Under the pieces are notes generated by a model that searched no databases, was not told the origin of the DNA, and saw nothing but the letters and a program-made list of their open reading frames with translations. The translations under genes were made by a program, and so were the position numbers. Positions 24,094 to 41,602 of a stretch of 47,560 nt of DNA are shown in pieces. The stretch covers positions 1 to 47,560 of the IMG/VR virus record IMGVR_UViG_3300025018_000022; one strand, 5' to 3'. This DNA comes from a virus. Its lineage: Duplodnaviria > Caudoviricetes. Within the stretch, counting starts at the first letter, position 1, and each line of letters begins with the position of its first letter.

Positions 24094-24624
24094 TCAGAAC
24101 GGCATCCCTTCTGGACGATCAGAGTCTTCCTGTCCCTCATCACTCTGGGTATTCTCCGGTTTATACTCAACCCACTCGTCAACTCGTACACCATCCAGAC
24201 GAACGGTTGTGTAAGCCTGAGAGTCAGCGTTGATACCCTTGAAGACAGAGAGCTTGAGAGTGCAGATAGAACCGTTACCGATCAGGCCACGTCCATCCCA
24301 GTCCTTGTTGTTAGAGTCAACAACACGAGGGGGGCCACCCCATTCAGTGATCTCAGTACCGTCCCGCTTGAGAACAACATTCTTCCGCTTGAACTGGAAG
24401 TAATCAAGATCAGGGTCAACACCCTCATCATACGGGGCCTTATACTCCTTCTCGGAGTAGCGCTTGTTCCAAGACTTGATAAGCTTCTTGTCGTCTTTGT
24501 CCACACCCACGTCGATGGTGTACTGTCCACCCTCTGGTGCGTACTGGCCTTTATCAAGGTTACCGGGGAAGACCTTGGCAAACATGATCGGCCCCACAAT
24601 ATAATAAACCTGCTCCTTACTCAT
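24094..24624 (-). CDS. Single-stranded DNA-binding protein (T7 gp2.5-like)
   Basis: FAKVF..N.D, IGNGS...L.L, RL.GV.V motifs. Acidic tail ending GMPF. Confidence 0.78.
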   Translation of the reverse strand: MSKEQVYYIVGPIMFAKVFPGNLDKGQYAPEGGQYTIDVGVDKDDKKLIKSWNKRYSEKEYKAPYDEGVDPDLDYFQFKRKNVVLKRDGTEITEWGGPPRVVDSNNKDWDGRGLIGNGSICTLKLSVFKGINADSQAYTTVRLDGVRVDEWVEYKPENTQSDEGQEDSDRPEGMPF

Positions 24625-24814: not shown

Positions 24815-24961
24815 CAGCCCTCTTACGGGGCTGACACGAGGTAACCTGAGCTACGCTCCTACACGCTACTACGTACAAGCTTCGCGCTAGCTAAGAGTTA
24901 ACCTAGTGTATTATCATCCGTGTTATACATATATTATACCCACAAATGCCCTGGTTGTCAA
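24815..24961 (-). promoter_or_regulatory. Consensus sigma70 promoter plus conserved leader (copy 1)
   Basis: TTGACA (24961-24956), 17-nt spacer, TATAAT (24938-24933). 36-nt and 48-nt blocks are identical to the 41.45-kb copy, followed by a CAGCCC/GGGCTG hairpin. Confidence 0.9.
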
Positions 24962-25242: not shown

Positions 25243-25484
25243 TCCAGAGTTCCTCCAAGCTTGTTAAGGTACCACTTAGCTTTCTCGATGTCCTGCCTCT
25301 GCCTCCCCTTGTATTTGTACCTCCACAAGTACTTCATAACATTACCCTTAAGGTATCCTTGGTACTCCTCCCTTCCCATACTGGCCTCGATAGCCTCGAT
25401 AGCCTCTATACCATGTTTGTTCAGCTTGTAGTGGGCTGGTGAGTTAACCTCTTCGTCTTCAGTAGTACAGGTCATCGTCGTCAT
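25239..25484 (-). CDS. DUF3310 / T7 gp1.7-like nucleotide kinase family protein
   Basis: VN.P.HY....IE.I.AI, GYLKGN..KY.WRY..KG...D..KA.WYL motifs. Confidence 0.85.
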   Translation of the reverse strand: MTTMTCTTEDEEVNSPAHYKLNKHGIEAIEAIEASMGREEYQGYLKGNVMKYLWRYKYKGRQRQDIEKAKWYLNKLGGTLE

Positions 25485-25671
25485 CCCCTCGTTCTCTTAT
25501 CAACTCAAGCTCATTCTCTGCGTAGCATAAGTATATGTCTAAAGTATACGGGTACTTAGCCTTTGGGGCTACATCAACAACCACACTAATCTTACCTTCA
25601 CAAGGTGTGTAGTACTGGTACCCCTCTACAGGGGTAATCACCCTGACGACATCTCCAATCTTGAATTTCAT
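25459..25671 (-). CDS. SH3/KOW-like small protein, LYY-tail family member 1
   Basis: MKFKIGDVVRV...YPY...ENELELI. Ends GDDDDDLYY. Confidence 0.75.
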   Translation of the reverse strand: MKFKIGDVVRVITPVEGYQYYTPCEGKISVVVDVAPKAKYPYTLDIYLCYAENELELIRERGDDDDDLYY

Positions 25672-25675
25672 ACAC

Positions 25676-27601
25676 TCAGTGTGTTTCATACCAGTTCCTA
25701 CCTATCTTGGATTCTCCAGCAAGGGCGACCGTCATACCTAGTTCTTCTCCTGCTCTCTTGATAGCCCCACACTGCAGCACTCCGATTCTCTTAGCTTCCT
25801 CCAAGTTATAAGCCTCTGTCTGCCATTCGTCGTGGACAAAGTCTACCTGCCTGTACCTTACGCCCTCCTTCTCTACCTCTTTGCGCCACAAGATGTTAGC
25901 ATGTTTCATCACGCAAGCTTCTCCATTCTGAAGGTAGCCCGCGAGCATGATATGCTGATTATAATTGATAACCTTTCGTCCGTCAAGGCCGATGAAATAA
26001 CCTCGTTCTGCATCAGACGGGATGACAACTCGCTTAAGGTTGTCGATTCCAGGTACACTAGACATGAACTTTGCAACAGCAGCTTTCGCCGCATCCCGTG
26101 TGCAAGAGAGGATTTGTGCAATCTTGTCCACTCCTGCTCCGAGAAGCCAAGCGTAGATGAAAGTCTTTGCGTCGTCTCTAGAACGACAGACGCTTCCGAG
26201 GAGCGAACGGTTAACTGAATGTACATCTGTTCCAAGGTCCTTGTTCCCTTCTACAATTGTCCTAGCGTATTCCTTGTTGGCTACATAGTGAGCGAACACC
26301 CTCATCTGTATCCCCTCAGCGTCGGTGCCCACCAGGTAAGCGCCTCTCTCCGCTTTCCACAGTCCTCGCAGGACCCCGTTGTACTTAAGCTTAACCTCCT
26401 CTACCTGAGTAGGAACCTTGCCACGACACTGGTCAGTAGTGAAGGTAGAGAAGATGTTCCCTTGGTTTGGCCTGACGTGAGACATCCTGTGTGTCCACGA
26501 ACCAATACCGTTGAATCCTCCGTGTATCCTGCCTGTGGCTGGGTTAAACGCAGACAGCCATTCAACCAAGTCCCCTCTCCTACCCTCAAGGGTAAGCCAC
26601 TTGGCTAACAGGTGAGCCCCTCTGGGAGCCTGAGGGGGTAGTGTCTCCAGGTTGGCCTCTGTGACCTGCCATCCGTACTCTTTAAACCTCAATAACCTAT
26701 CATGCAGCTCTTTGCTTACACGGTTGTTCCTCTCTGCCTTTCGGTATTCTCTCTCACATTTCAGGTGGCCTCTGGTTTTATCCACCGGCTTCCACCCTGC
26801 TTTATTCAGGTACTCAACCCTTTGCTTTGCTGACCCTGGGTTAAAGGGCTCGTAGTGAAATCTGTAAAACTCTGATCCATCAGTTATACCTCTGATGTGG
26901 CCAACAATCCTAAGGGTCCCTTTAGCTGGCTGCCCATCCTTATTTACCTTTAACTTAACACCCCCGTCTTGGACTAGAACAGGGGGGATATCCCTGTGTA
27001 TCTCCTCCTCAACACCCCTCATCTCTTTCTTGATAAGAGAAAGGTACTCCTCAGCCTTAGCCTTGTCGAAGGAGAATCCATTCTCGCGCATATCCCGGCA
27101 GATGTAGGCCATATCGTGCTCTACCCTGAGAGCCTTAGCCCACGCTGGATCATAGATGAACCGCTCTAGCTCCTTGTAGATACGGTGCTGGATTTCTACG
27201 TCTACCTTGCACCTTTCAATATACAAGTCGATAAGCTTTGGGTTGTTCCAGTCATCAACCTTTACCTTCTGCTCTAGATGGGGCCACTGTTTACCCCAGT
27301 TCTCTACACTGTGCCCACCCACCTTAGAAAAATTGACAAGCCTAGACACAACAAGTGTATCAATACAGCCACGCCAATCAATTTCAGCGCCATCAACCAG
27401 TCTATTGATGTTAGGGATATCATAACCAATAATATGATGACCAATGAAACAAGAGCCATCAGGGAAAGCTCTACTAAAAATTCCGATATTGTCCTGAGAA
27501 AAGACATGTACCACTCCACTTGCTACCTCCTTACAAACGATGCACCAAATCTTAGTGGGATTCTCGAGAGAATTAAACTCAGCGTCTATGATTACTTTCA
27601 T
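25676..27601 (-). CDS. Family A DNA polymerase with 3'-5' exonuclease
   Basis: Exonuclease motifs DAE, GHH..GYD, Y..RC..DV. FNPGS..Q, motif A TDAEGIQMR, motif B AKTFIYA, motif C VHDEWQ. Confidence 0.95.
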   Translation of the reverse strand: MKVIIDAEFNSLENPTKIWCIVCKEVASGVVHVFSQDNIGIFSRAFPDGSCFIGHHIIGYDIPNINRLVDGAEIDWRGCIDTLVVSRLVNFSKVGGHSVENWGKQWPHLEQKVKVDDWNNPKLIDLYIERCKVDVEIQHRIYKELERFIYDPAWAKALRVEHDMAYICRDMRENGFSFDKAKAEEYLSLIKKEMRGVEEEIHRDIPPVLVQDGGVKLKVNKDGQPAKGTLRIVGHIRGITDGSEFYRFHYEPFNPGSAKQRVEYLNKAGWKPVDKTRGHLKCEREYRKAERNNRVSKELHDRLLRFKEYGWQVTEANLETLPPQAPRGAHLLAKWLTLEGRRGDLVEWLSAFNPATGRIHGGFNGIGSWTHRMSHVRPNQGNIFSTFTTDQCRGKVPTQVEEVKLKYNGVLRGLWKAERGAYLVGTDAEGIQMRVFAHYVANKEYARTIVEGNKDLGTDVHSVNRSLLGSVCRSRDDAKTFIYAWLLGAGVDKIAQILSCTRDAAKAAVAKFMSSVPGIDNLKRVVIPSDAERGYFIGLDGRKVINYNQHIMLAGYLQNGEACVMKHANILWRKEVEKEGVRYRQVDFVHDEWQTEAYNLEEAKRIGVLQCGAIKRAGEELGMTVALAGESKIGRNWYETH

Positions 27602-27617
27602 AAATTTTGTATGTCCT

Positions 27618-27860
27618 CTAGTAGTAAAGGTCTTCGTCGCGGCTTGTCAAAAGCTTTAGCTCTTTCGCAGAAAAGTAGGTACCACCCCCTATTGCAAAAT
27701 GAACAAAGACAGGATAGGTGGAGAAAGGTCCGGGTAATACACGTTCTACCACTCCAATACTTTTTCTCCTAGGTGAGTGGATATAATTGTGGACTTGGAC
27801 TGTATCACCCACCATAAGCTCTTCACCCCTGCGAGTAATAGCCCTGCTATTATTAGTCAT
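27618..27860 (-). CDS. SH3/KOW-like small protein, LYY-tail family member 2
   Basis: VGDTVQV...IGVV...YPVFVHF...FSAKELKLL. Ends RDEDLYY. Confidence 0.78.
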   Translation of the reverse strand: MTNNSRAITRRGEELMVGDTVQVHNYIHSPRRKSIGVVERVLPGPFSTYPVFVHFAIGGGTYFSAKELKLLTSRDEDLYY

Positions 27861-27873
27861 CTGTGCCTTCCTT

Positions 27874-28095
27874 CTAGTAGAAAAGGTCCTCGGTATCTTC
27901 TGGTATCTTTGCTATGTGGTCATCTGAACCAACCCAATAGCCGATACTAATGCATACCTTAGACATACTTGGAAAGTAACACTTGGCATAAATTCCACGT
28001 TTAGGGGTTGATAACACCTTACCTACATCACCAACCCTGACACCCCCACCGTTCTCCTTGATACAGACTACAGTATCACCTTTCTTAACCTTCAT
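27874..28095 (-). CDS. SH3/KOW-like small protein, LYY-tail family member 3
   Basis: MKVKKGDTVVCI...VGDVGKV. Ends EDTEDLFY. AAGGAG SD. Confidence 0.78.
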   Translation of the reverse strand: MKVKKGDTVVCIKENGGGVRVGDVGKVLSTPKRGIYAKCYFPSMSKVCISIGYWVGSDDHIAKIPEDTEDLFY

Positions 28096-28106
28096 GTTCT
28101 TTCTCC

Positions 28107-29759
28107 TTAAAATGGTAGCGGCTTCTCTGGTTTACCAAGTGCTTGGGATTCATCTATACCTGCCACAGGCTTCCCACCCCTCTTGGCTTCTGTCTTATTC
28201 CAGTCTTGGTGGAACCACCCCTCACAGATAGTCGAGGTCTTCTTGTCCCAGTAGTAGGTACCCGCTGGACCAGTGGTAGAGAACGGCCTGTTCTTTGTTA
28301 CCTTGATCCAAGTGTGGTTTCTGTCTACCTCATCAACAGCTTCCAGGTCCCTCTGAAGATCAATACGGATACTCGAAGCTTTCCCAATCATCCTGCTGTT
28401 TCTGGTCTTGCCGTCGTCTGTAAGATGAGCTGTCCATACCACACCAACAGGGTAGTGTTGCACAAAAGCCTCCACCTTCATGGCCAGCATGTCTAGCAGT
28501 TCAACTCTGGATTCATCTTTGTCTGGGTGGAACTGGTTAACCGGGTCGATAAAGATATACTCAACATCACACACAGTAACCAAGTACTTAAACTGTTCAA
28601 GGATCATTTCGACTGTAGGCTCAGATTTGAATTCAAACAGGAACAGGTTCTTGTACCCGTCTGTTAGGTCGTACAATTCCTTACTTATCTTATCGTTCTC
28701 AACAGGATTATCCGGGTCTCTAACATCCTTATCCATACTGAACCCAGCAAGATTTCGGAGTAGAGTTTTCTTCGTCTCTTCCATATGCAGGACAGCGATC
28801 TTCTTGCCGATAGCCAAGGCATCACACTCCAGAGACCTGAGGATTTCAGTCTTACCAATCCCTTCTTGTCCGGTGATAAGAGTGATGTGGTTTGTAGGGA
28901 TGCCCTTGATAACCTCGTTAAGAGAATTGTTGCTGGTCTCGAAGTAGGACTCTGTCATCTCGTCTGCTAAGATAGAACTGAAGTCTTCTTCTGTGTGGTA
29001 CACGTTGTCTACTGTCATTATAGCAGCGTTGTTCCACGCCTGTACCCACTCCTTATCATCCCCAGCCTCAAGGTACGCGTTAGCATCCTTGTGCTTAGTC
29101 ATAGACACCTTGCGGACCTTAGAAGGAAGCATCTCTGCCAACAGGGCGGCTGCCTCTTGACCAGGACCATCGTTATCCACAGCCAGCTTGACAGTTTCGA
29201 AGGTTGATAGGTAGTCGTACACCTCCTTCTTACTGAAGTTTGCAGAGGTCAGAGCTACAACAGGCTGGATAGTCTTCTTACCGTAGTTGAGCATCTGGTA
29301 AGCAGCCGCCCAATCCTCCTCCCCCTCCACTACAGTGACGTAGTGGGCACTACCTGCGTTGAATAGATTGGTGCCGACCAGGCCCTTAGGGTACTTGCCC
29401 TCGATAAAGAAAGCTCCCTTCATCTTGTTCTGCTTTCGTACCACATCCCTGAATTTGCTGCCTGTAGGGGTGCGGTACTCCCGGAACATCACGTTCCCAG
29501 CCTCGTCACAGTAACTGTGGATGCCCAAGATTTCACATACTGCGGCTTTGATACCCCTGAATCCCTCGTGAAAGACAGGCTCTCCGTAGTCCTTGGGCTT
29601 TTTGGCGAAGTCCTCAGGGAACCAGCTACACCCGCAAGAGAAGCAGTGGCCATGCTTGTCACCGTAGAGGGTGTACGCATCTGTACTCCTCTTCTCTGGG
29701 TGCTTGCACCCTCCGACGTGGTCAGGGCAGGGAAGCCCGCTCTTGTCACCCTTAGCCAT
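28107..29759 (-). CDS. T7 gp4-like primase-helicase
   Basis: Zn finger (CP...C, HCFSC), TOPRIM VEGEED and DNDGPG, Walker A GQEGIGKT, FIDP and KNR motifs. Likely start is MAKGDK at 29759. Confidence 0.93.
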   Translation of the reverse strand: MAKGDKSGLPCPDHVGGCKHPEKRSTDAYTLYGDKHGHCFSCGCSWFPEDFAKKPKDYGEPVFHEGFRGIKAAVCEILGIHSYCDEAGNVMFREYRTPTGSKFRDVVRKQNKMKGAFFIEGKYPKGLVGTNLFNAGSAHYVTVVEGEEDWAAAYQMLNYGKKTIQPVVALTSANFSKKEVYDYLSTFETVKLAVDNDGPGQEAAALLAEMLPSKVRKVSMTKHKDANAYLEAGDDKEWVQAWNNAAIMTVDNVYHTEEDFSSILADEMTESYFETSNNSLNEVIKGIPTNHITLITGQEGIGKTEILRSLECDALAIGKKIAVLHMEETKKTLLRNLAGFSMDKDVRDPDNPVENDKISKELYDLTDGYKNLFLFEFKSEPTVEMILEQFKYLVTVCDVEYIFIDPVNQFHPDKDESRVELLDMLAMKVEAFVQHYPVGVVWTAHLTDDGKTRNSRMIGKASSIRIDLQRDLEAVDEVDRNHTWIKVTKNRPFSTTGPAGTYYWDKKTSTICEGWFHQDWNKTEAKRGGKPVAGIDESQALGKPEKPLPF

Positions 29760-29778
29760 CTTTGTCGTCCCTTCCTTT

Positions 29779-30021
29779 CTAGTAGTACAAGTCTTCGTCT
29801 GGCTCGGATACCATCTCAAGGTCTTCTGGGAAGTGGTAACTTAAAAATGTTTCTTCATCCCAAAGTACCTTGTACTTCAAAGAGCTCCTCTTGTCAAATT
29901 CCCAGTAAAAGGACTTAAGGATTGTTCCTGGCCTATCCCTGTTGTGCAGAGGAAAAGTTACAGCAAGAGGCATTTGTGCTTTCTTTGATAAGCGAACTCT
30001 AGTCCCCGGTCGCAGGGTCAT
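29779..30021 (-). CDS. SH3/KOW-like small protein, LYY-tail family member 4
   Basis: LRPGTRVRL...GTI...YKVLWD...FPEDLE. Ends EPDEDLYY. Confidence 0.78.
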   Translation of the reverse strand: MTLRPGTRVRLSKKAQMPLAVTFPLHNRDRPGTILKSFYWEFDKRSSLKYKVLWDEETFLSYHFPEDLEMVSEPDEDLYY

Positions 30022-30172
30022 CTTCCTTATCCTCTTCTGGGTCCTCGAAGTCTTGTAGTGTATCCAGGATTACCTCCTCACAAGTCTTACAGGTGTCCTC
30101 TCCTGAGTGGAAGAAGTGTAGGTTAGATTGGCTGTCGTCAAACATCTCATCACAAATCCTGCAGCGTTTCAT
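29999..30172 (-). CDS. Small Zn-ribbon protein with acidic tail (57 aa)
   Basis: Hand-translated MKRCRICDE...TCKTCEEVILDTLQDFEDPEEDKEDDPATGD. AAAGGA SD. Confidence 0.7.
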   Translation of the reverse strand: MKRCRICDEMFDDSQSNLHFFHSGEDTCKTCEEVILDTLQDFEDPEEDKEDDPATGD

Positions 30173-30198
30173 CTAAGTATCCTTTAATTACTCTTGGC

Positions 30199-31038
30199 CT
30201 ATGGTACATCTATAAAAGGTAGATCGTAAGTATCGTTGATCTTGTCTGGGTTCAAATCAAACTTGGTGGCAAAGTGTTTGAAGTAGTTGACAGCAGTAGT
30301 ACCCGCTAACCCAGGGGCTGTATTCACCTCAAGCACACAGGCTCTGTTGTTCCTTGCATTGTACACTACATCTACCGCCCCAAAATCCAATCCACATACT
30401 CGGACAGCTTCGACCGCGTTTCTTGTGACACTTTCTGGGGGATCAACTTCACTCCGGCAGAATACGAAACCGTTGGCCAAGTTTCGAATTCTGTAGTTGA
30501 CTTCTTCAAGAGGGGTTTCCTTCTTTTTCCTTTTCTCTTGGACATCGATAACCATCCCGTCTGCTATGTGGACTCTGTACTCGTGCTTCTTTTTAACATA
30601 CTCAACAAAGAGTGTGCCTTCTGGTAGCTGTCTGACCCCATCAGATGTCCCCACTTCCACAATCCCATCTCCACCGCTTCCCGTAAGCTTAGTCCTTGCA
30701 AACAGTAGGCCGCAATCTGCGAGGATATCTTCCGCCTCAGCCCTTCGAACAGTGAATCTCGGGAGTTCAACCCCTCCTGTCTCTCTGCATAGTTCAAAGA
30801 ATCGTCTCTTGTTTGTTGCATTTCCTACAGCTTCCGGTTTGTTTTCAATGTGTGCTCCTTTCAACTCGTATGGGAAGTTGCTGGAGCCCCAGTTGATAAC
30901 AACTCTATGCTTTCCACCAGAAAAAGCAGAGCCCTCTGTCCGTATGATCCTCACACCTAGAGACCTGGCCAGCAACTTGCCACCTTGAGACGCCCTATCG
31001 TGCCGATACAGGAATACATTCTTCTCTTCCAAAGCCAT
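30199..31038 (-). CDS. ATP-grasp ligase (RimK-like, phiEco32 type) 1
   Basis: INWG, NK..F, GSGG.GI, EYRVH, GLDFGAVD, LEVNTAPG motifs. Confidence 0.9.
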   Translation of the reverse strand: MALEEKNVFLYRHDRASQGGKLLARSLGVRIIRTEGSAFSGGKHRVVINWGSSNFPYELKGAHIENKPEAVGNATNKRRFFELCRETGGVELPRFTVRRAEAEDILADCGLLFARTKLTGSGGDGIVEVGTSDGVRQLPEGTLFVEYVKKKHEYRVHIADGMVIDVQEKRKKKETPLEEVNYRIRNLANGFVFCRSEVDPPESVTRNAVEAVRVCGLDFGAVDVVYNARNNRACVLEVNTAPGLAGTTAVNYFKHFATKFDLNPDKINDTYDLPFIDVP

Positions 31039-31049
31039 ATCAGTCCCTC

Positions 31050-31313
31050 CTAGTAGTACAAAACTTCGTCCAGCTCAGACAATACTTCAAGTTGGTCTTC
31101 ATAGAAGTTACCTAAAAATTTTCCTTCGTCCGAGTATAACTTACACAGTAGACCCCATACGGTAGGTTGAACATAAGCGACTGTTCCTTCCTTAAATACG
31201 CTAATCGAAGGGCAACGCCTACGCATAAAATTGCGCTCCTTCGCTGCTAAACGAACTCTAGCCCCTGGTAGCAGCTCCATCTTCCTTGGCCTCTTCTGGG
31301 TTCTCAAAGTCAA
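31050..31313 (-). CDS. SH3/KOW-like small protein, LYY-tail family member 5
   Basis: LLPGARVRL...EGTV...FYEDQLEV. Ends ELDEVLYY. Exact start uncertain. Confidence 0.72.
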   Translation of the reverse strand: MTLRTQKRPRKMELLPGARVRLAAKERNFMRRRCPSISVFKEGTVAYVQPTVWGLLCKLYSDEGKFLGNFYEDQLEVLSELDEVLYY

Positions 31314-31319
31314 TCCCTC

Positions 31320-31505
31320 CTAGTAGAACAAATCCTTGTCGTCTTCTTCCACCTTAACCCAGTTACGCTTACTACAGTACCAGTAAATAGGCAGGAACAC
31401 TTCAAACCCGTGTGCTCCTCTGGGTTTTGCTTCTACAACCACACCTACTGGGAAAAACTCATCCCCAATACAACCAGTCGATCTGATCTTCTGGATTAAC
31501 ATCAT
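31320..31505 (-). CDS. Small beta protein, LYY-tail family member 6
   Basis: MLIQKIRS...FPVG.VV...WYCS...W. Ends EEDDKDLFY. Tandem paralogue of the adjacent gene. Confidence 0.75.
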   Translation of the reverse strand: MMLIQKIRSTGCIGDEFFPVGVVVEAKPRGAHGFEVFLPIYWYCSKRNWVKVEEDDKDLFY

Positions 31506-31514
31506 CAGTCCTTT

Positions 31515-31715
31515 CTAGTAGAGCAAATCCTCACCCATATCTTCTTTGGCTACCTCAGCCCAACTGTGCTGGCTGCAATACCATCCTTGGGGTAGACCCT
31601 TCCGGGGAAGAAGCCTGTGCCCGAACCTTCCAACGATATCTACCTTTACAACTGTACCTATCGGGAAAAGTCTATCTGATACCAAACCACCTGATCTGAC
31701 CTTCTGGATTAGCAC
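31515..31715 (-). CDS. Small beta protein, LYY-tail family member 7
   Basis: MLIQKVRS...FPIG.VV...WYCS...W. Ends EDMGEDLLY. Confidence 0.75.
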   Translation of the reverse strand: MLIQKVRSGGLVSDRLFPIGTVVKVDIVGRFGHRLLPRKGLPQGWYCSQHSWAEVAKEDMGEDLLY

Positions 31716-31716
31716 T

Positions 31717-32550
31717 TTACCACTCCTCTGTAGAATAGGCTATGTCTTGGGCCAGCCTTGCCCCTCTCCTCAGTATAGATGTAGCCTCAGGGTGAACCAA
31801 GAAGGAGCCAGCTTCCTCTGGCCCGAGGATATGCCTTACGAATTCAGCCTCCCCTCCTTCGCTAAAGTTCAAAACAACTTGCTTTGGGTCTTTGAACAAC
31901 CTGGAATTCTTTACTACGGAATCAAGAATGTTAACCCACCGAGTAATGTACAGGTTATCCAGGGAACCACGCAAGGCTCTGAACTCTACTGTCCCATACT
32001 TGAACAGGCTAGTAAGGTTCAAGGCACAGTACCTGATAGTGTTGTTGCCGAGGTATGTCCCGATGAATCTTCCAGTCCTTACCTCTTCTGAAAGGGTATG
32101 GATAACCCATTCTGCATCTACAGCCCGTAAGCAGAAGTGGTTACCTTGCCTGCCTTCTCCAAACTGGGAGGACAATAGTTCTTCGAGGGTGTACCACACA
32201 CAGAGGAAGGTGTAGAACTCTTTGACTGAGAGGTTGGACACGTCGTAGTGGATGTGTGTCCCTGCTCTAACTGAGTCCATTACTTGTGTGTTACTTGACT
32301 TGATTATACCCTTCAGCTCAAGTAGTACCTCGTTTACTTTACTAGTTCTTACAGGGGCACGAAGGACAAACTCAGCAGAATCTGCCCCCCTAAGTGAGCC
32401 ATCAATCTGCTTGGACCAGCGCGAAGTATCGAATTCTCCCACACCAGGCATAGGGCTTGAAGACTCAAGTTCGATCTCGATGCCCACCCCCTTAGGGCTC
32501 TTTTGTTTTGCACCCACCATTTGGCCAACCGTAGTCTCAGGACACGTCAA
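31717..32550 (-). CDS. Putative amidoligase (glutamine synthetase/GCS2-like fold)
   Basis: GIEIELE, DGSL, EFV, GTHIH, RY.ALNL, GTVEFR motifs. Confidence 0.85.
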   Translation of the reverse strand: MTCPETTVGQMVGAKQKSPKGVGIEIELESSSPMPGVGEFDTSRWSKQIDGSLRGADSAEFVLRAPVRTSKVNEVLLELKGIIKSSNTQVMDSVRAGTHIHYDVSNLSVKEFYTFLCVWYTLEELLSSQFGEGRQGNHFCLRAVDAEWVIHTLSEEVRTGRFIGTYLGNNTIRYCALNLTSLFKYGTVEFRALRGSLDNLYITRWVNILDSVVKNSRLFKDPKQVVLNFSEGGEAEFVRHILGPEEAGSFLVHPEATSILRRGARLAQDIAYSTEEW

Positions 32551-33115
32551 GATTAACCTCCTCTTTGATCAGCTCTTTCAGCCACATGTTCTTTTCAGGA
32601 ACCTTTAATAAACCGTTCTCGTTATTAAAGGAACCGACAGGAAGGTAGCACTTGTAAACAAGAGTGTAGTTCTCGGATACACTAAAGTTTCTGGAGATAG
32701 CAACTGATTTGTAGGCATCTTCAACCTTCCCCAAAGCCTCTTCCACTTTAGAGTACTTACAAAAAATAGGCTGGGCTAGAGAGAAAAGGTTAAAGGTTAC
32801 ACTCCGCTCTATTCTTCCTTCCTTCAGGCAGACAATATTTTTAGCCCTAAGACCCTGTCTCCAGTCGTCCCTTAGAGGGACACGGGACACAAACATAGCC
32901 TCCCCGTCGAAGTCTGTATTACCTAAGGCAGGGGAGCTAATCCTTACCTCCTTTAGGGGTACTACAGCAGTCTTAAGAAGTGTCCGACCCTCGATAAACT
33001 TATCAGGCCTTACTGCTTCCACGTAGATCATCCCGTCAGAGGGTGGATAAACTAAGAAGGTTTTCTCCAGCCTGCTTTTAACATAGCGAAGGTCAAACTC
33101 CTTATCGTCGTACAT
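32537..33115 (-). CDS. Hypothetical protein within the ligase cluster
   Basis: 192 aa. LGN..., SR.P.R..WRQGL and A.SR.F motifs as I recall from phiEco32-like clusters. Confidence 0.7.
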   Translation of the reverse strand: MYDDKEFDLRYVKSRLEKTFLVYPPSDGMIYVEAVRPDKFIEGRTLLKTAVVPLKEVRISSPALGNTDFDGEAMFVSRVPLRDDWRQGLRAKNIVCLKEGRIERSVTFNLFSLAQPIFCKYSKVEEALGKVEDAYKSVAISRNFSVSENYTLVYKCYLPVGSFNNENGLLKVPEKNMWLKELIKEEVNLDVS

Positions 33116-33116
33116 C

Positions 33117-33992
33117 TCATACTGCCTTGTTGTCTAGGCTCGGATGAATAAGAGGTAGGTACTTACCCTCTGGGCCAACAGGAATGTGGTCTCTTCCGTT
33201 GTTGACGATCCAACTAAACGCTTTTGCCACACATTCTTGCCGGTAAGGAGAGGTCTGAGACGGCGCTGAGTTTATCTCGATAATGAAGGGTCTACCGTCC
33301 TCGTCAATTATTACATCGACACCACCAAAGTCAAGACCACTGTGGTTAAAGGCTTCAATAGAGGCCCTAACAGCAGAGAGTGGCCACTCACCCCACCTTA
33401 CGTTGTCAAACCTTCCCCCTTGGGCTACGTTCCAAGCGATATCTTCGGGGTTTCCCGGTGTTTTTCTGGCAACCCAGACTGCTCGCCCACTACAAACGAA
33501 CACTCGGTATTCAGCCACCTTGTTGATGAGCTCGCTGATATAGTAGTTACCCTCGCCTAACTCCTCACATTTTTCAAACAGGTTATCTTCGTCTTCTCCG
33601 TCATCCCCCAATTCAAATACCCACAGGTCCCGCCCTTGGGAGTGTGTGGCAGGTCGGACAATCACTGTTCCTACGTCTGGGTAAGAGAAAGAATCGGCGG
33701 CATCCACAGCGGAGAACCACGTCCTTGGGGTAATCTCTGGGCTACGCTGGGCCATTAACCCACGAAATAATTTCTTGTTTCCAGCAAGGTGGATAGCTGA
33801 AGCCTGGTTGATCACATTTAATTTCCTAGGTAGGTTAGACGTGCAACCCCACCGGAATACGTAGTCAACTTTGTCTGGCCACGGATCGTCCAGCCAATTA
33901 CGAATGACAACAGCCTCCTCCATGTTTGCTGCGATGCCCTCAGTGCTTGTCTTGCCAAGCTTCTTCCGCCTTAGAAAAACTGACGTTGACAT
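33117..33992 (-). CDS. ATP-grasp ligase 2
   Basis: RWGCT, NK..FR, VIVRP..H.QGR, EYRVFV, GLDFGGVD, IEINSAP motifs. Confidence 0.9.
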   Translation of the reverse strand: MSTSVFLRRKKLGKTSTEGIAANMEEAVVIRNWLDDPWPDKVDYVFRWGCTSNLPRKLNVINQASAIHLAGNKKLFRGLMAQRSPEITPRTWFSAVDAADSFSYPDVGTVIVRPATHSQGRDLWVFELGDDGEDEDNLFEKCEELGEGNYYISELINKVAEYRVFVCSGRAVWVARKTPGNPEDIAWNVAQGGRFDNVRWGEWPLSAVRASIEAFNHSGLDFGGVDVIIDEDGRPFIIEINSAPSQTSPYRQECVAKAFSWIVNNGRDHIPVGPEGKYLPLIHPSLDNKAV

Positions 33993-34005
33993 TGTATCCC
34001 TTTCT

Positions 34006-34848
34006 TTACTCGGTTACGTTGTAAGTCTTAGCCCAGTCTACAGCAAGTTTAGTCTTGCTGTTGTTGATGATATCTACTACGTCTGGTGTGTGGATAAGCT
34101 TGTGCTTCATACAGTTTGAGAGTGCTGTTTTGATAGCGTCAAACACCTTGACCCTGGCCTCAGGGTTTCCAACCCACACGTTAGAGGGAACCCTATACTC
34201 CAGACCATAAGGCTTAGGTCTGAATGCCCCAGCCTTGCCATACATCTGTCGGCGCTCCTCGTTAGGGTCAACGATAACACTTACAATACCTACGGTAGCG
34301 TCTAGTTCCCTGGCAACCAGAGAGCACAGCCTCATGTGTCTGAGACTACCCACCGCCAGGTTCTTGCCCCACCCAATATGGATGTGCCCCGCACCAGTCC
34401 TCATTGTCTCTTTCGGGGGCTTGGGAACATCGTTCTGGCTTTCTGTCCAAGCGTTGAAGTCGGGGTCACAACCTAAAACCTTATCCTTCTCTGGAATCTT
34501 GGACCAGTAGTCCTTGTCGAACTCAACAACAGGTCTGAACGTTAGCTTATACCTCCCGATACCCCCTTGCTTTTTGGTGTGGCTGTCTATAAACTCCTGC
34601 ACACACCTGATCGTACTGTGTAAGTCGTTACTACCGGTAAGCGAAGACTTAACAGGGGCAGGGGAGGTGTTGAACTCCAAGGCCACCCCATCCCTTTGGA
34701 CCCTAACACCACTTGTGATACTGTAGGGGTTCTTCTTGGTGCCGAGAGGCCACATATAGGAAGGGGCAAGAATCCTCTCTTCCTTCGTGTCAAAGATAAA
34801 ACCCTCTGGGTCAAACCCTACAAGGAAGTCGTGACCATTCACTTGCAT
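34006..34848 (-). CDS. phiEco32-like COOH-NH2 ligase (type 2)
   Basis: G.DPE.F, Q.DG.A.EFN, GCDPDFNAW, RT..GHIHIG, RR.MYGKAG.FR.KPYG.EYR.PSN motifs. Confidence 0.88.
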   Translation of the reverse strand: MQVNGHDFLVGFDPEGFIFDTKEERILAPSYMWPLGTKKNPYSITSGVRVQRDGVALEFNTSPAPVKSSLTGSNDLHSTIRCVQEFIDSHTKKQGGIGRYKLTFRPVVEFDKDYWSKIPEKDKVLGCDPDFNAWTESQNDVPKPPKETMRTGAGHIHIGWGKNLAVGSLRHMRLCSLVARELDATVGIVSVIVDPNEERRQMYGKAGAFRPKPYGLEYRVPSNVWVGNPEARVKVFDAIKTALSNCMKHKLIHTPDVVDIINNSKTKLAVDWAKTYNVTE

Positions 34849-34850
34849 GG

Positions 34851-35894
34851 CTAGTTAACCTTTCTGTCGTTCTTAGATGTAGTCGCACAAGTCTCACAAG
34901 CAGGCGACTCGGAGTCTACCCATTGCACACTCTTCCTGTCTTCCCACTTAAGCTTATCCCCACAAAACACACAACCATTTTCTACTAGTCTGGCCCACCT
35001 GCTCTTGTGTACCATCTGGCCATGCACTGTATGTGCGTAGTCCTCGATGAACTCAACTTCTGAACCAGCAACACTTCGATACCCCGGCAAAAGCTTAGAC
35101 AGGTTCCACTTATTAAAGTATGCTGCTGGCTTAACGGGCGGGGTATACTTAAACTTGAAGGGCTTTGTTGGTACCGAGCTGAACAACACCACCTTCCCGT
35201 CCTTCACCCCCCACCTGTGTACCTTGTCGGGCAAGACAGACCGTACACCAGACTCCTTGTTATACTCCACACCAGTACGGCCTAGTGCAACGTGTAGCAT
35301 CCAAGCTTCGCTGGCGTAGAAGATAGTCTTCTCATCCTTTGTCTTGACCACAAACAAATCTCTCTTGTCGTTCCTTGCCAAATACAAAGTGTCGTCGGTT
35401 AGGTCGTGCCACACAAAAGCATACTGCCCTCGGATATCTTCGAAGGCATCCTCTGGGTTATCAAACGAGTCGATATACCTAAGGCAAATCTCGCTATCTG
35501 TCAACCCTTGCTTGTACGTCTTAAGGCTAGAGAACACTTCTTTCGGTATCGTACCGTTGTGCATTCCAACCAGCTTATCACTCAAGAAAGGGTGAGCGTT
35601 GTCGATGCTCACCTCACCAACAGTCTTTGACCTGTGGTGGGACAAGATAGAGATAGGGGAGAGGATTCCGTCGATAGTCTTTCTCTTCATAGAGAAAATA
35701 CTTTCGTGGGCTGTCATAAAGGACTCAACCCCACCTAAGGACTTGCGAATATCTACATCGTCCTTTGTATTCTTTGGAATTATAGCCACCCCTGTCGAGT
35801 CAGACCCTCTGAGTTGAGAGAACACCATCAGGTGAACTAGGGCTTGCTTCTCTTTGAAGCTGATATCTCCGTAGACTCCGCACAATCCGCACAT
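34851..35894 (-). CDS. Class II (Ntn) glutamine amidotransferase
   Basis: N-terminal MCGLCG, RG.DSTG, H.R..T.G, NAHPF, HNGT, TDSE motifs. C-terminal CxxC...CxxC. Confidence 0.9.
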   Translation of the reverse strand: MCGLCGVYGDISFKEKQALVHLMVFSQLRGSDSTGVAIIPKNTKDDVDIRKSLGGVESFMTAHESIFSMKRKTIDGILSPISILSHHRSKTVGEVSIDNAHPFLSDKLVGMHNGTIPKEVFSSLKTYKQGLTDSEICLRYIDSFDNPEDAFEDIRGQYAFVWHDLTDDTLYLARNDKRDLFVVKTKDEKTIFYASEAWMLHVALGRTGVEYNKESGVRSVLPDKVHRWGVKDGKVVLFSSVPTKPFKFKYTPPVKPAAYFNKWNLSKLLPGYRSVAGSEVEFIEDYAHTVHGQMVHKSRWARLVENGCVFCGDKLKWEDRKSVQWVDSESPACETCATTSKNDRKVN

Positions 35895-35898
35895 CAGT

Positions 35899-36609
35899 TC
35901 ACACTCCTTCCTTAAAGGCCAAGTTTTCCAAGGCTGAGAAGTACCACGCTTGGCAAGAATCTCCCGGCCCTACATACTCTGGATGGGGCTGGTAGCACAG
36001 ACTCCTGGTCTTGCTGTAGTACACACACTCCACATCCTTGGACTTACCAACAACACAACGAACCTCACCGTCCCCACTTCTCTTGTACATCGAGATACTG
36101 GAGGTAAGCAGGACGTTGCCGTTGCCACAAACAGGAATCTTCATCATCTGGTGGTGGGTGGATGTCACCTGAAACCTACCATCCTCACTCTTGGTGGCTG
36201 ACTTTAGGTTCTTGTTCTGGTAGTCATCAAGCCAAACGTTCTCTTCGAATACTGCCTCGTGATTTCCAAGGTGCCCATCCACATCTTGCCACAGCCTGCC
36301 TCCGTTCATAACATGAAGGAACTGGCCTCCTCTACAGATACCAGCCGTCGCCTTACCTAGAGATAGGGCTAAGCTGAAGATGTCTCTTTCGTAGATATCC
36401 CTCTCTGTGTTTACGTTCGTAGTGGGCAGACTCTTCTCGTTGTACAACATAGGGCTCACATCTGCCCCACCTGTGAACTGAACCAGATCAGCATCTTCGA
36501 TGTTGTCAACCAACCACCATTTGTTCCTCTTCCTGAACATCTCCTGGCATCTGATGTCCCCCCCTACGACGTAGACTGTCTTGATATTCTCGGTAACCCG
36601 ACAACTCAT
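35899..36609 (-). CDS. Class I glutamine amidotransferase / peptidase C26 family
   Basis: FTGGADVSP..Y, GICRGGQ, STHHQ, QPHPE motifs. Confidence 0.9.
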   Translation of the reverse strand: MSCRVTENIKTVYVVGGDIRCQEMFRKRNKWWLVDNIEDADLVQFTGGADVSPMLYNEKSLPTTNVNTERDIYERDIFSLALSLGKATAGICRGGQFLHVMNGGRLWQDVDGHLGNHEAVFEENVWLDDYQNKNLKSATKSEDGRFQVTSTHHQMMKIPVCGNGNVLLTSSISMYKRSGDGEVRCVVGKSKDVECVYYSKTRSLCYQPHPEYVGPGDSCQAWYFSALENLAFKEGV

Positions 36610-37532
36610 GCTGCTGCCTTTCCTTCTGGTTTAACAGAGGCTTTTACCTCTGCGTATAGGTCGTCAACCAACCCCCTCAAAACTTCGAAGTGGTTGGGTC
36701 CTTTCTCTCTGTTTACAAACAGCTCTGGCAAGAGATTAAAGGGGTTAGGATCAACCTCTAACTTCTTATCCCCCTGAAAAACAGAGAAAGATTTGTGGTC
36801 GCCAAGCCACGTTGTAAGCCTGTTTTCTGGGGTTAGCTCCTGTGTATTCCAGTAACGAGGAACACCATCATATCTGTTAACCTCGTGCATCTCTGTAAAC
36901 CTTTTTGGTTTCCGATAGTTGCAAAAGTTATACAGAGCTTCCTTAACCAAGAAGTTAGGGTATATTGTTACGTGCCCAGTCTCGATTATGTTGTGTATAG
37001 AGTTGTCCTCCTTTACTTGGAACATAAAGGACAGGAAGAATGCCTCATCCTCTGAGAACAGACCGGAAGAAACCAGAGAGATGAAACTGGAAACAACCCT
37101 GGGCTTCTCCCAAGTATGGCGTATCGCCTTGCAGGCCATACCGCTTATCTGTTGGGGGTTGTCGTAGCAAGACACAGCAATGCCACAAGTGTACACCGAG
37201 GCCGCAGACTTTGTAAGGTAAGCATCCCTGAACGGACTCCTGTTGAACAGGTAGTCGTAATACACTCTTGCATTCTTCTTTGAGAACCGCTCCTCAGCAT
37301 CTGAGTACTCTGTGTTTACAGAATGAATAACATACTTGGAGCCACCTTTCCTGCCGTAGCCTGAGGCGATATCAGCATGACAAGGAGCCCCGTAGCTACG
37401 ATCTACAATCCGTGTATTGGCCTCACTTACCATCACGTAGGATACCGTAGCCTTCTTGCTCCAAGACTTCTGAGCCTTGTAGAATTCTGTGGCCTCGGCG
37501 AGAAGTTCTTTGTTCGGCAACCTTTCAACCAT
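36606..37532 (-). CDS. Hypothetical protein within the ligase cluster (308 aa)
   Basis: Long ORF coupled to both neighbours. No family recognised. Confidence 0.7.
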   Translation of the reverse strand: MVERLPNKELLAEATEFYKAQKSWSKKATVSYVMVSEANTRIVDRSYGAPCHADIASGYGRKGGSKYVIHSVNTEYSDAEERFSKKNARVYYDYLFNRSPFRDAYLTKSAASVYTCGIAVSCYDNPQQISGMACKAIRHTWEKPRVVSSFISLVSSGLFSEDEAFFLSFMFQVKEDNSIHNIIETGHVTIYPNFLVKEALYNFCNYRKPKRFTEMHEVNRYDGVPRYWNTQELTPENRLTTWLGDHKSFSVFQGDKKLEVDPNPFNLLPELFVNREKGPNHFEVLRGLVDDLYAEVKASVKPEGKAAA

Positions 37533-37953
37533 GCTTCACCCTTTCCGAAACATTAAGACGCCTTACTGACTCAGGCCAGTAGAGCACCCCGTTAGAGTCA
37601 GGCTTGTGCTGCTCACCAACCACAGACCTGCCACTCACCCAGTGGTACATCTCTACCTTGTCACCAGAGAACAAAGCGATAGGTGTGGGGGTTCTCCGGT
37701 AAAAATTAGGGTGCCCCTCCAGCCTGTCCAACCTGGGCAGCACACTATCACTAACTTCCCATACCTCACCGGCCACCCTACCCACAAACTCATCCGAATC
37801 CTCTTCCTCAGCAGGCCGGGCAAGAGGGAACCCCCTACCAAACATAACAAAATCTTCCAAGGTACACGCCTTGTATAGCATACGAGACTCACCCATCAGG
37901 TGGTTGTTAGCCTGCCCCTTCAACAGAGTACCGTAGACAAATACTAAGTTCAC
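37525..37953 (-). CDS. Gamma-glutamylcyclotransferase (AIG2-like)
   Basis: VFVYGTL..G..N, V.GEV.EV, LD.LEGHP..Y.R motifs. GTG start at 37953. Confidence 0.9.
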   Translation of the reverse strand: MNLVFVYGTLLKGQANNHLMGESRMLYKACTLEDFVMFGRGFPLARPAEEEDSDEFVGRVAGEVWEVSDSVLPRLDRLEGHPNFYRRTPTPIALFSGDKVEMYHWVSGRSVVGEQHKPDSNGVLYWPESVRRLNVSERVKHG

Positions 37954-37972
37954 TTTGTTGTCCTTCCCTTCT

Positions 37973-38251
37973 CTAGTAGTACAGTTCTTCGTCACGATTT
38001 GCTAAAAGCTTTGGCTCTTTCGCAGAGCAGTTTGTTAGAAGCTTTAACTCCTTTGCAGAAAAGTATTTATACCCTTTCCCTTCCCCAAAATTAACATAGA
38101 TAGGGTACCCGCCACGAGCTTGGTGTAGCACAGACACTACCACACCGATCTCTTTTCTCCTGGGCAAGTGAGCATAATCACAGACTTGGACTGTATCACC
38201 AACCATAAGTTCTTCGCCCATACGGGTGGTAACACTGCTGTTATTAACCAT
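37973..38251 (-). CDS. SH3/KOW-like small protein, LYY-tail family member 8
   Basis: Clear paralogue of 27618-27860. Ends RDEELYY. Confidence 0.78.
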   Translation of the reverse strand: MVNNSSVTTRMGEELMVGDTVQVCDYAHLPRRKEIGVVVSVLHQARGGYPIYVNFGEGKGYKYFSAKELKLLTNCSAKEPKLLANRDEELYY

Positions 38252-38266
38252 CTGTGCTTCCCTTCT

Positions 38267-38488
38267 CTAGTAGTACAGCCCCTCTTCTAAGGCAGCTTTC
38301 CTGACAAACCTTGAGTATTTAACAGGTGTATTACACACCCAAACAATACCATTGTGGACCTTCTCAACTTTATATGTTTCACCCTGCTCGAAATACCAGC
38401 CCTCCACACAAACAACTTCTTCCCCCTCTACTAGAGGTGGATCAAGAAAATCAGCTCTGAATAGTTCATCCTCCTTATTATAGGACAT
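38267..38488 (-). CDS. SH3-like small protein, LYY-tail family member 9
   Basis: GEEVVCV...GETYKVEKV...SRF. Ends LEEGLYY. Likely start MSYNKE at 38488. Confidence 0.72.
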   Translation of the reverse strand: MSYNKEDELFRADFLDPPLVEGEEVVCVEGWYFEQGETYKVEKVHNGIVWVCNTPVKYSRFVRKAALEEGLYY

Positions 38489-39134: not shown

Positions 39135-39162
39135 GTGAGTTGTTGTTGCTACCCCTTGCAAG
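39135..39162. repeat. Inverted repeat arm (partner at 39848-39874)
   Basis: GTGAGTTGTTGTTGCTACC (19 nt perfect) plus TGCAAG extension. Confidence 0.85.
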
Positions 39163-39177
39163 CTATTCAGTGTCAGG

Positions 39178-39804
39178 TCAGGCGACCTTCGAAGTAGTGT
39201 TAGTAACACTACCCACAGGCAGGTGGACCTTGTGCGCGCCCTGGAAGAGCGGCTTGTCGGCCTTCGGTTGCGGCTTGTCGAGGTCCTTGCTGATCTCCCA
39301 CTTGTCGAGGATGCCCTTGATCAGAGCCTTATCCTTGGCGTCCATCATGATGGGGCGTTCCTTGAAGTTCTCGGGATACTCCGAGTACTCAGCAGCGATC
39401 TTGTCCGACTTCGACAACAGGCTCTTGAGCCTGCCGTACTCGTTGAACGTCTTCGCATCCTGACCAGTCTGCCCCATCGCATCCTCATCAGCGTAGTAAG
39501 GCGAGGACAAAGCCTTGTCGAGGTCGATAGTCTCACGCTTGGCACCATCCTTCATCTTGAAGGTAGCGCCGTCAGCCTGAAGCTTCATGCGACCCCACTT
39601 CTCGAACCACTGGATGAGGCCGCGACGATGCGAGCCTTTGCCCTTCAGTTCGGTAGTCATCATCGAGCAAAGCGACGTGTCACCATGCTTGATGTAGTGT
39701 TCGAGGCACCATCCTGCGCAGCGAGCCGTCCTCACTGACAACTTCTCCTGCGCTGCGGCGATAGCCTTGATTTCCTTGCGGATAGTCTCTGCGTTACGTG
39801 CCAT
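39178..39804 (-). CDS. Conserved early podovirus protein of unknown function, probably highly expressed
   Basis: I..I......L......A..CL.H...HGD..L, R..L..WF..G pattern common in podovirus early regions. Strong C/G-ending codon bias. AAAGGA SD. Confidence 0.85.
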   Translation of the reverse strand: MARNAETIRKEIKAIAAAQEKLSVRTARCAGWCLEHYIKHGDTSLCSMMTTELKGKGSHRRGLIQWFEKWGRMKLQADGATFKMKDGAKRETIDLDKALSSPYYADEDAMGQTGQDAKTFNEYGRLKSLLSKSDKIAAEYSEYPENFKERPIMMDAKDKALIKGILDKWEISKDLDKPQPKADKPLFQGAHKVHLPVGSVTNTTSKVA

Positions 39805-39809
39805 CTCTT

Positions 39810-40228
39810 TACTTTCCTTTCTGGCCCTTCGGCCTAGGTTCAGATGACTTGCAGAGGTAGCAACAACAACTCACAGTGCTTAGCCCACCCGGTGCTCTGA
39901 CACCAGGCAGGCTATCACACATCAGACCCTTTCGGGTCTTTAATTTCCCCAGCTCCTTCCCTCTAGGAGATGTCTCACTCCTATGCGGTGGCAGGCTGCT
40001 ACCCTGCTAGGCTGGCGTCTCTTACTCTCAACCCAGGTTAAACCTGTTAAGCTGCGCTTCCTTGGTTAGCAACCACTACTGGTTGCAGGTTAAAGACCGC
40101 TCGCAGAGTTAGCAGAACTCCGGCGCATACTCATTCCCATTTCCAGCCTTGCGGCTGAAGCTGTTGGGCTGCGGAAAGGATAGCATCTCGCATATCCTTC
40201 CGGTCAGAGTGCAATGACCTAACGAATA
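39810..40228 (-). ncRNA. Putative structured non-coding leader RNA (~420 nt)
   Basis: No long ORF, directly downstream of a promoter. Many hairpins with GNRA loops and G-U pairs that work only on the minus strand. Confidence 0.5.
39848..39874. repeat. Inverted repeat arm (partner at 39135-39162)
   Basis: Reverse complement reads GTGAGTTGTTGTTGCTACCTCTGCAAG. Confidence 0.85.
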
Positions 40229-41430: not shown

Positions 41431-41602
41431 TTGACAAGCATCAAGAAATCGGATATAATATATGTATAACACGGATGATAATACACTAGACTAACTCTTA
41501 CTCTTCTCTTAGGCTAGCGCGAAGCTTGTACGTAGTAGCGTGTAGGAGCGTAGCTCAGGTAGACGTTAGTCCTAGGTTACTCCGTATCAGCCCCTAGGGC
41601 TG
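41431..41602 (+). promoter_or_regulatory. Consensus sigma70 promoter plus conserved leader (copy 2), heading the late arm
   Basis: TTGACA (41431-41436), 17-nt spacer, TATAAT (41454-41459). Blocks 41454-41489 and 41513-41560 are identical to the 24.9-kb copy. Hairpin at 41588-41602. Confidence 0.9.

Follow-up and report, generated by a model that had tools for sequence, protein, structure and literature searches.

We analysed nine small genes that share an acidic C-terminal tail in a 47,560-base stretch of viral DNA (hereafter the window), which is the entire virus record IMGVR_UViG_3300025018_000022 and carries direct terminal repeats of 127 nt. The sequence is that of a complete 47.6 kb genome from an uncultured podovirus resembling the Zobellviridae, and among cultured phages its polymerase is closest to that of Roseobacter phage CRP-4 (43%), followed by other Zobellviridae. 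All nine genes lie on the minus strand; genes 1 to 5, 8 and 9 were classed as SH3-like, and genes 6 and 7 simply as small. Gene 1 (25459-25689; 76 aa, or 70 aa from the ATG at 25671) ends in GDDDDDLYY followed by TGA, and its tail overlaps the start of a DUF3310 gene in a different frame. The other eight genes stop with TAG. Gene 2 (27618-27860, 80 aa, RDEDLYY) is located directly ahead of the DNA polymerase, gene 3 (27874-28095, 73 aa, EDTEDLFY) between the primase-helicase and gene 2, gene 4 (29779-30021, 80 aa, EPDEDLYY) directly ahead of the primase-helicase and gene 5 (31050-31280, 76 aa, ELDEVLYY) directly ahead of an ATP-grasp ligase, ATP-grasp A. Gene 6 (31320-31505, 61 aa, EEDDKDLFY) lies next to gene 7 (31515-31715, 66 aa, EDMGEDLLY), which comes after an amidoligase gene. 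Gene 8 (37973-38251, 92 aa, RDEELYY) is positioned directly ahead of a gamma-glutamyl cyclotransferase and contains a 33-nt internal duplication immediately ahead of its tail, and gene 9 (38267-38488, 73 aa) ends in LEEGLYY. Four of the nine genes adjoin the polymerase or primase and five flank a cluster of peptide-ligase genes.

The tails end in LYY in six proteins, in LFY in two (27874 and 31320) and in LLY in one (31515), which confirmed the nine minus-strand open reading frames (ORFs) and tails given in the original prediction, a model's reading of the letters. Its claim that no other gene ends in this way also held, as an L[YFL]Y end was found in 0/52 other hand-listed genes and a six-frame scan added only a 13-codon plus-strand segment lacking a start. 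From the residue frequencies of minus-strand genes, 0.03 ends of this type are expected among 61 genes, and the probability of six or more is about 7e-13 when only six independent lineages are counted. The protein bodies had been described as mostly unalignable; this was too strong for three paralogous pairs (27618/37973, 29779/31050 and 31320/31515, the last 42% identical), which together with three single genes leave about six independent bodies. All nine ORFs are interspersed with core genes on the coding strand, and a purine-rich stretch lies ahead of the proposed start in most. The likely start of the 31050 gene is ATG 31280 (76 aa, versus 87 aa from TTG 31313) and that of the 38267 gene is ATG 38488 (73 aa), each preceded by a purine-rich stretch resembling a ribosome-binding site (RBS). 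Position and start context support the nine ORFs being real genes. Contigs from three DNA runs showed no tail variants, the listed differences being a paralog placed on the wrong copy, and PADLOC, which covers known anti-phage defence proteins, matched 0/12 proteins. Three of the four tail-to-tail junctions (31050-31715 and 37973-38488) are in frame across TAG, compared with 0/4 of the TAG tail-to-enzyme junctions, and read-through at the former would give tandem SH3 arrays resembling the repeat proteins described below. Such amber read-through is unlikely, since a tRNA gene search of the window found none and other lineages use TAA or TGA.

To place the variable parts of the proteins, termed heads here, we compared them with known families. 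None of the nine matched Pfam directly (KOW, YorP and SH3 included), and PHROG matches were weak (best E 0.002). A word-index search with the 27618 protein returned only itself, and look-alikes in the atlas were unnamed viral clusters at 0.90-0.91, which is a lead only. A profile built from seven heads and searched against 1.84 billion representatives gave 79 hits, six of which were the window's own proteins. Most of the others contain a common domain of the MKFKVGDKV type, present once or in several copies; the top hits also include a few unrelated repeat proteins such as Calx-beta arrays, and the relatives match SH3_15, KOW, PsaE and DUF1918, mostly via summed weak repeats. These phage tandem SH3-repeat proteins lack the window tail, which stood at the end of 0/73 outside hits; it therefore appears to have been added outside an SH3-like domain that is common in phages. 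The model of the 25459 protein is a small beta-barrel with a mean predicted local distance difference test score (pLDDT) of 77.6 from eight aligned sequences, comprising strands 8-11, 28-34, 42-44 and 55-59 with a 3-10 turn ahead of the last strand, the arrangement of an SH3-like barrel, which is predicted for this one head only. The tail (residues 60-70) lies outside the barrel, and the last ten residues have a pLDDT of 57. The best fold match was PsaE (Z 7.6, root-mean-square deviation 1.6 over 55 residues), and further matches included Spt5/NusG KOW domains, HERC2 and Mind bomb repeats and SPbeta YorP. Z values ranged from 7.6 to 6.4, and PsaE and the KOW domains superposed with deviations of 1.5-2.0 over about 55 residues; a Z below 8 indicates a common arrangement only and says nothing on function. 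At the syntenic place in a sister locus (L038), an SH3-like-looking head without a tail is, by eye, fused to DUF3310.

We then searched for comparable tails in related phages. Loci were fetched with ATP-grasp B, the polymerase and ATP-grasp A as queries, genes were called with a simple greedy caller, and the ends of 48-135 aa ORFs were scored for sharing against internal segments; a locus was positive when its star was at least 8 above its null. In all, 12/107 loci (window included) and 5/76 were positive, while weak families in L115, L185, L075, L259, L263, L267 and L291 were not counted. Shared tails are thus a recurrent architecture of which the window is one instance, and the motif differs from lineage to lineage: YE[ED]LYx in L003; L[ED][ED][YFW]x in L012, L016, L019 and L030; LE[ED]M[LM] in L074; the basic KxC[FST][ST]L in L098; GFGKFIKRIE in L015 and L018; LENK in L236; LM[ED]EYL in L238; the basic FKGNK in L245 and L254; PxLLEENV in L270; and a floating PxxLxxW in L117 and L118. 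In cultured phages, for which the annotated small genes within the fetched stretches were examined, 12 genes of phiM6 end in Y[KRL][IVA]DQE..EE.L-type tails of 13-15 residues, eight of CW02 in P..L[ED][ED]N[VILA] (plus three further variants) and ten of Klyazma in LENK (plus two variants); HP1 has three genes with another common end, phiRIO-1 has two such genes (gp11 and gp20), and Vibrio phage 1.262.O showed no shared tail. The proposed search of related phages for this C-terminal pattern thus succeeded with other motifs, and a family with LYY itself was found only in the window: no second LYY family was present in any fetched locus, leaving this tail without an outside replicate, and none of the 10 viral contigs returned by an exact search for the tail-DNA pattern has such a family. 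A hidden Markov model of the window heads found 28 outside ORFs among 4,691, and 19 of these carry, by eye, their own lineage's different tail; related heads therefore carry unrelated tails. Together with the barrel model of one head and the 73/73 tail-less relatives, this supported the proposal of a variable head with a constant C-terminal handle. In six longer records, tail motifs end only small early- and middle-arm genes. In a primase tree of 73 rows built with FastTree, five changes are needed to account for the nine rows with tails (the weak L115 included). Well-supported branches force every one of these changes, and each brings another motif; L003, L019, L030, L098 and L185 are omitted from the tree as they have no full primase. 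The window's three nearest rows, L038, L040 and L047, have the ligases and no tails. Two further ends were noted. About eleven small proteins each in L015 and L018 end in the GFGKFIKRIE-like stretch, which resembles an amphipathic membrane-targeting helix, presumably of the MinD type, and a 56-aa ORF in L003 (785-955) ends in DLRVVK, which we take to resemble the ClpX-binding tail of SspB.

The tail is likely to be some kind of handle under selection. The original prediction took the varying Leu codon (CTG in three genes, CTT in two and TTG in four) as a sign of selection on the peptide, and this argument survived in part. Across 33 non-paralog pairs, third-position identity at codons -5 and -4 is 0.27 and 0.24 while the acidic character is mostly retained, and the Leu is invariant over three codons with a first-position identity of 0.39; silent positions scrambled under kept residues at codons -5 to -3 are therefore what selection on the peptide would produce. 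At the DNA level, however, the final two codons and the stop are nearly fixed, with C as the third base of the penultimate codon in 9/9, TAC as the last codon in 9/9 and TAG as the stop in 8/9 tail genes versus 6/32 other genes. All eight minus-strand occurrences of CTACTAG are at tail-gene stops, and repeats of 31-35 nt with 69-86% identity cover tail, stop and spacer. One tail-stop-spacer copy lies ahead of the primase (29757-29799, minus strand) and another, the reference copy of the repeat, ahead of the cyclotransferase gene (37951-37993, minus strand). The 22 nt past the stops of genes 29779 and 37973 nearly match (score 11 versus a maximum of 6.5 among 435 control pairs), and since these near-matching spacers sit behind non-paralogous heads and before unrelated genes, tail, stop and RBS spacer probably moved as one cassette.

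The tail might accordingly be a side effect of a mobile junction in the DNA, formed by last codons, stop, spacer and RBS, that lets new small genes recombine into the operon, with the peptide itself doing little, an explanation that we regard as unlikely while giving it some weight. It would account for CTACTAG at 8/8 TAG tail stops, for the fixed C/TAC and the 8/9 TAG, for the repeats and for the spacer common to the primase and cyclotransferase sites, and two counts speak for it against a peptide function: silent identity in the window tails is 78/124 where 0.44 is expected (P 0.005), and in 71 of 142 outside tails the RBS of a coupled, overlapping next gene lies within the tail. The 'EED' ends in L036 are such a case, being plain GAGGAC-TGA, and were rejected as an RBS artefact. 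This explanation is hard to reconcile with the silent variation under kept residues at codons -5 to -3 and with seven other large families, which gave P values for silent identity of 0.03 (L012), 0.06, 0.09, 0.14, 0.15, 0.17 and 0.82; identity is near background there, mostly slightly above, and in 6/7 it is not above expectation at P 0.05. In 13 other tail sets, 55/142 tails keep the motif with no GGAG, GAGG or AGGA in the last seven codons, the phiM6 tails extend over 13-15 residues, and the RBS-like stretch lies past the stop in 8/9 window genes. Because of the tails lacking an RBS word and the position of the window's own RBS-like stretches, RBS overlap is not the sole cause; the 142 tails were picked by motif from partly non-independent sets, and they speak to whether an RBS is required, not to the rate of tail decay. 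Tails are also found almost only on SH3-type small genes (8/9 versus 0/14) and not on many other coupled genes. An RBS-hiding hairpin was ruled out as a general cause since, by eye, it fits the 27874 junction only, and no sigma-70 promoter was found on the window tails.

Other readings accept a functional peptide and give it a different partner. The C-terminus of bacterial single-stranded DNA-binding protein (SSB) is of the DDDIPF type, and a tail that mimics it would dock the heads on SSB-tail pockets of the phage polymerase or primase, or of host DNA-repair enzymes, and so place them at replicating phage DNA. We consider this improbable, although 9/9 tails do run from acidic residues through Leu and a hydrophobic residue to an aromatic at the end, and the four genes beside the polymerase or primase would suit it. 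The window SSB (24094-24624) ends in EGMPF and its primase-helicase (28107-29759, minus strand) in KPLPF, and many relatives' SSBs end in IPF, LPF or VPF. The penultimate Pro is nevertheless absent from 9/9 tails, and most other lineages' tails lack the terminal aromatic and vary in the last residue, so that this cannot be a general rule; of the SSB-type pocket suggested originally, only the likeness within the window stands. The primase also ends in [IL]PF in L038, L040 and L047, resembling a host SSB tail. A turnover signal for a host protease or unfoldase, either as a degron or on an adaptor that carries bound host proteins to degradation, seems quite improbable. In its favour, every window tail sits strictly at the free C-terminus, Lon is known to recognise aromatic C-terminal degrons, and host-specific proteases could account for lineage-specific tails; acidic residues near the end, on the other hand, usually hinder recognition by ClpXP and Lon, and the gammaproteobacterial phage tails LENK and LEENV are, to our knowledge, unlike known degrons of those hosts. 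The HbYX gate-opening pattern invoked in the original prediction has an invariant penultimate Tyr and fails in 3/9 tails, where this residue is Phe (two) or Leu (one); the invariant Tyr of the window is the last residue. Nor did the suggested clamp-type motif fit, as the beta-clamp motif is QL[SD]LF and Gln occurs four residues ahead of the aromatic in 0/9. Least probable is a capsid-loading signal on variable anti-defence proteins injected with the DNA. T4 internal proteins follow the same logic of a constant N-terminal targeting tag and variable body, and several tails have a short amphipathic pattern, but no such motif occurs on virion-arm proteins of the window or of the six longer records. 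The consulted part of the phiRIO-1 virion census names only gp8 and the scaffold as traces (PMC4819975), which is weak evidence from a two-member pair, gp11 and gp20.

We return to the reading that we favour, in which the tail is a selected docking handle on rapidly diverging, predicted SH3-like heads for one phage-coded partner, most likely a component of the ligase cluster; as a whole this is our best explanation, and it is put forward tentatively. The cluster is on the minus strand and includes ATP-grasp A (30199-31038), a RimK-like ligase of the PA11/PaP3 type (phrog_2599, E 6e-73) and a candidate tail reader. Further genes encode proteins of the phiEco32/PA11-type cluster, likewise candidate readers, namely the amidoligase (31717-32550), ATP-grasp B (33117-33992), a COOH.NH2 ligase (34006-34848), GAT-II (34851-35894), a C26 amidotransferase/peptidase (35899-36609) and the gamma-glutamyl cyclotransferase (37525-37995), together with two proteins of unassigned family that have no solved relative by profile (192 aa, 32537-33115; 308 aa, 36606-37532). 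COOH.NH2 ligase, amidoligase, ATP-grasp, GAT-II and cyclotransferase are thus all present in one cluster, and the window holds the full enzyme set of the gamma-glutamyl amide operon of phiEco32, LUZ24, PA11, phiRIO-1 and phiM6. ATP-grasp A and the cyclotransferase each lie directly behind a tail gene, and neither gene was seen in the examined DNA of three tail-less sisters. Ligase genes are present in all 15 loci that have a strong family on GD.V-type heads, but as ligase queries were used to fetch these loci, their ligase content is ascertained.

Much weighs against the cluster as partner, and the co-occurrence with ligases proposed in the original prediction found support only in those ascertained loci. 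No tail family was detectable in 58/68 and 71/76 ligase loci, PA11, PaP3, L038, L040 and L047 among them, although some may have been missed because of fragments and the crude gene caller. Tail-positive loci numbered 10/68 with ligases versus 2/39 without (Fisher P 0.20), and 0/17 versus 2/38 among polymerase-fetched loci. The ligase-free complete record G003 has about a dozen small genes with a PxxLxxW end; tblastn with 27-102 homologues per family found no ligase-cluster gene in it beyond one marginal hit (E 9e-4), while the control G006 was strong. As its motif lies at a variable distance of 0-6 residues from the end and the GD.V signature is present in 0-1/12 heads, G003 is an imperfect counter-example. 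It has a CobS/CobT-like AAA+/vWA pair in place of the cluster. No cluster gene tracks with the tails across loci, and oppositely charged tails (FKGNK, KCSTL) adjoin homologous ligases. We conclude that the tail genes are not a constant part of the ligase operon and that the link is positional, not obligate. Co-folding of the 25459 protein with the polymerase and ATP-grasp A in one job scored 0.14 (mark 0.32) and weighs neither way. Substrates of RimK and tubulin-tyrosine ligase end in Glu, as do 0/9 of the tails, all of which end in Tyr; ligation may instead take place on side chains of the acidic tail residues. Graspetide precursors use Thr, Ser or Lys as donor residues, and the tails were rejected as such precursors for want of a conserved donor. 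In L115 (2832-6504), L117 (2901-7237) and L118 (2543-6273), a CobS/CobT-like AAA+/vWA pair also replaces the ligase cluster (Pfam on L115 and L118), with shared-end small genes around it and the polymerase split in two.

In the mechanism that we propose for the docking handle, the tail would be a short peptide joining variable heads to a single reader. The heads would bind different host targets and the tail would tie them to one hub, so that the set would supply a protein-modifying machine with interchangeable adaptors or substrates. Recombination of a head onto the tail-stop-RBS cassette of roughly 30-40 nt could create a new member, after which selection would retain the peptide. Co-evolution of reader and tail would explain why tail sequences are lineage-specific, and the strong difference in motif between lineages is best explained by a phage-coded reader, to which we give somewhat less than even odds. 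Within it, a ligase-cluster protein is the leading single candidate, in itself a doubtful one. More speculatively, and with little expectation that it holds in full, Zobellviridae-like podoviruses might have an E3-like adaptor system in which swappable SH3-like heads are addressed by a lineage-specific C-terminal peptide to the orphan peptide-ligase cluster (or to the AAA+/vWA pair in ligase-free phages) for covalent modification or remodelling of many host proteins, tail-reader pairs having been invented several times and the library growing via cassette recombination.

The tail logic, a short docking tail on a variable body, is of a known type. The tails of SSB and of T7 gp2.5 and gp4 serve many clients through one type of pocket and sit on core replication proteins. 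Like the window tail, they have an acidic run followed by a terminal aromatic residue; they differ in that the window tail lacks Pro and is found on nine accessory genes, and other lineages' tails are unrelated to them. In T4 gp45 clamp-binding tails and in poxvirus ankyrin-PRANC/F-box adaptors, a short constant module addresses many proteins to a hub, which is the same arrangement of constant module and variable body with a different position, sequence and known partner. The T4 capsid-targeting sequence is N-terminal and cleaved, whereas the window tag is C-terminal; neither a clamp gene nor a cleaved N-terminal tag was seen in the window. The tail families themselves are undescribed in searchable literature, as no account was found in full-text articles, with supplements and most subscription papers outside the scope of that search. 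A peptidoglycan-modifying role has been proposed for the seven-gene peptide-bond segment of phiM6 (PMC6256558) and, in the portion of the text consulted, for a peptide-bond module (PMC4819975). Shared-tail small genes are mentioned neither in the main text of the former nor in that portion of the latter, though phiM6 has twelve, and 'C-terminal' does not occur in the accessible part of PMC9960094. No tail family is present in most loci that carry a phiEco32-type module.

No substrate has been demonstrated for the peptide-ligase operon of these podoviruses in the literature examined, and most of their many small early genes are unannotated; a common handle turns nine unassigned genes into one question, namely what reads the tail. 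The parallel families in phiM6 (Sinorhizobium meliloti) and CW02 (Salinivibrio), both cultured on tractable hosts, make this testable. If the adaptor reading is true, the heads would amount to a catalogue of factors for host takeover or anti-defence, and the cassette would explain how new ones are recruited.

Several neighbouring features were noted in the course of the analysis. In the 308-aa cluster protein, Cys51, Arg138, Glu142 and His187 are invariant across 22 homologues, which suggests an undescribed enzyme. A small Cys-x2-Cys protein with an acidic end is encoded at 29999-30172 (minus strand), just ahead of the primase region; look-alikes are found at the same place in relatives both with and without tails, and the 3' end of its gene was co-duplicated with the 29779/31050 pair. 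A 22-nt inverted repeat (95%) at 39135-39156 and 39853-39874 lies on both sides of a 208-aa early gene (39178-39804). A larger two-part inverted repeat at 24844-24961 and 41431-41560 (48 nt at 100% and 50 nt at 94%) has its copies joined to perfect TTGACA-17-TATAAT promoters, one directed at the SSB/exonuclease genes and the other at the late arm, and this duplicated promoter element encloses the entire replication and ligase region.

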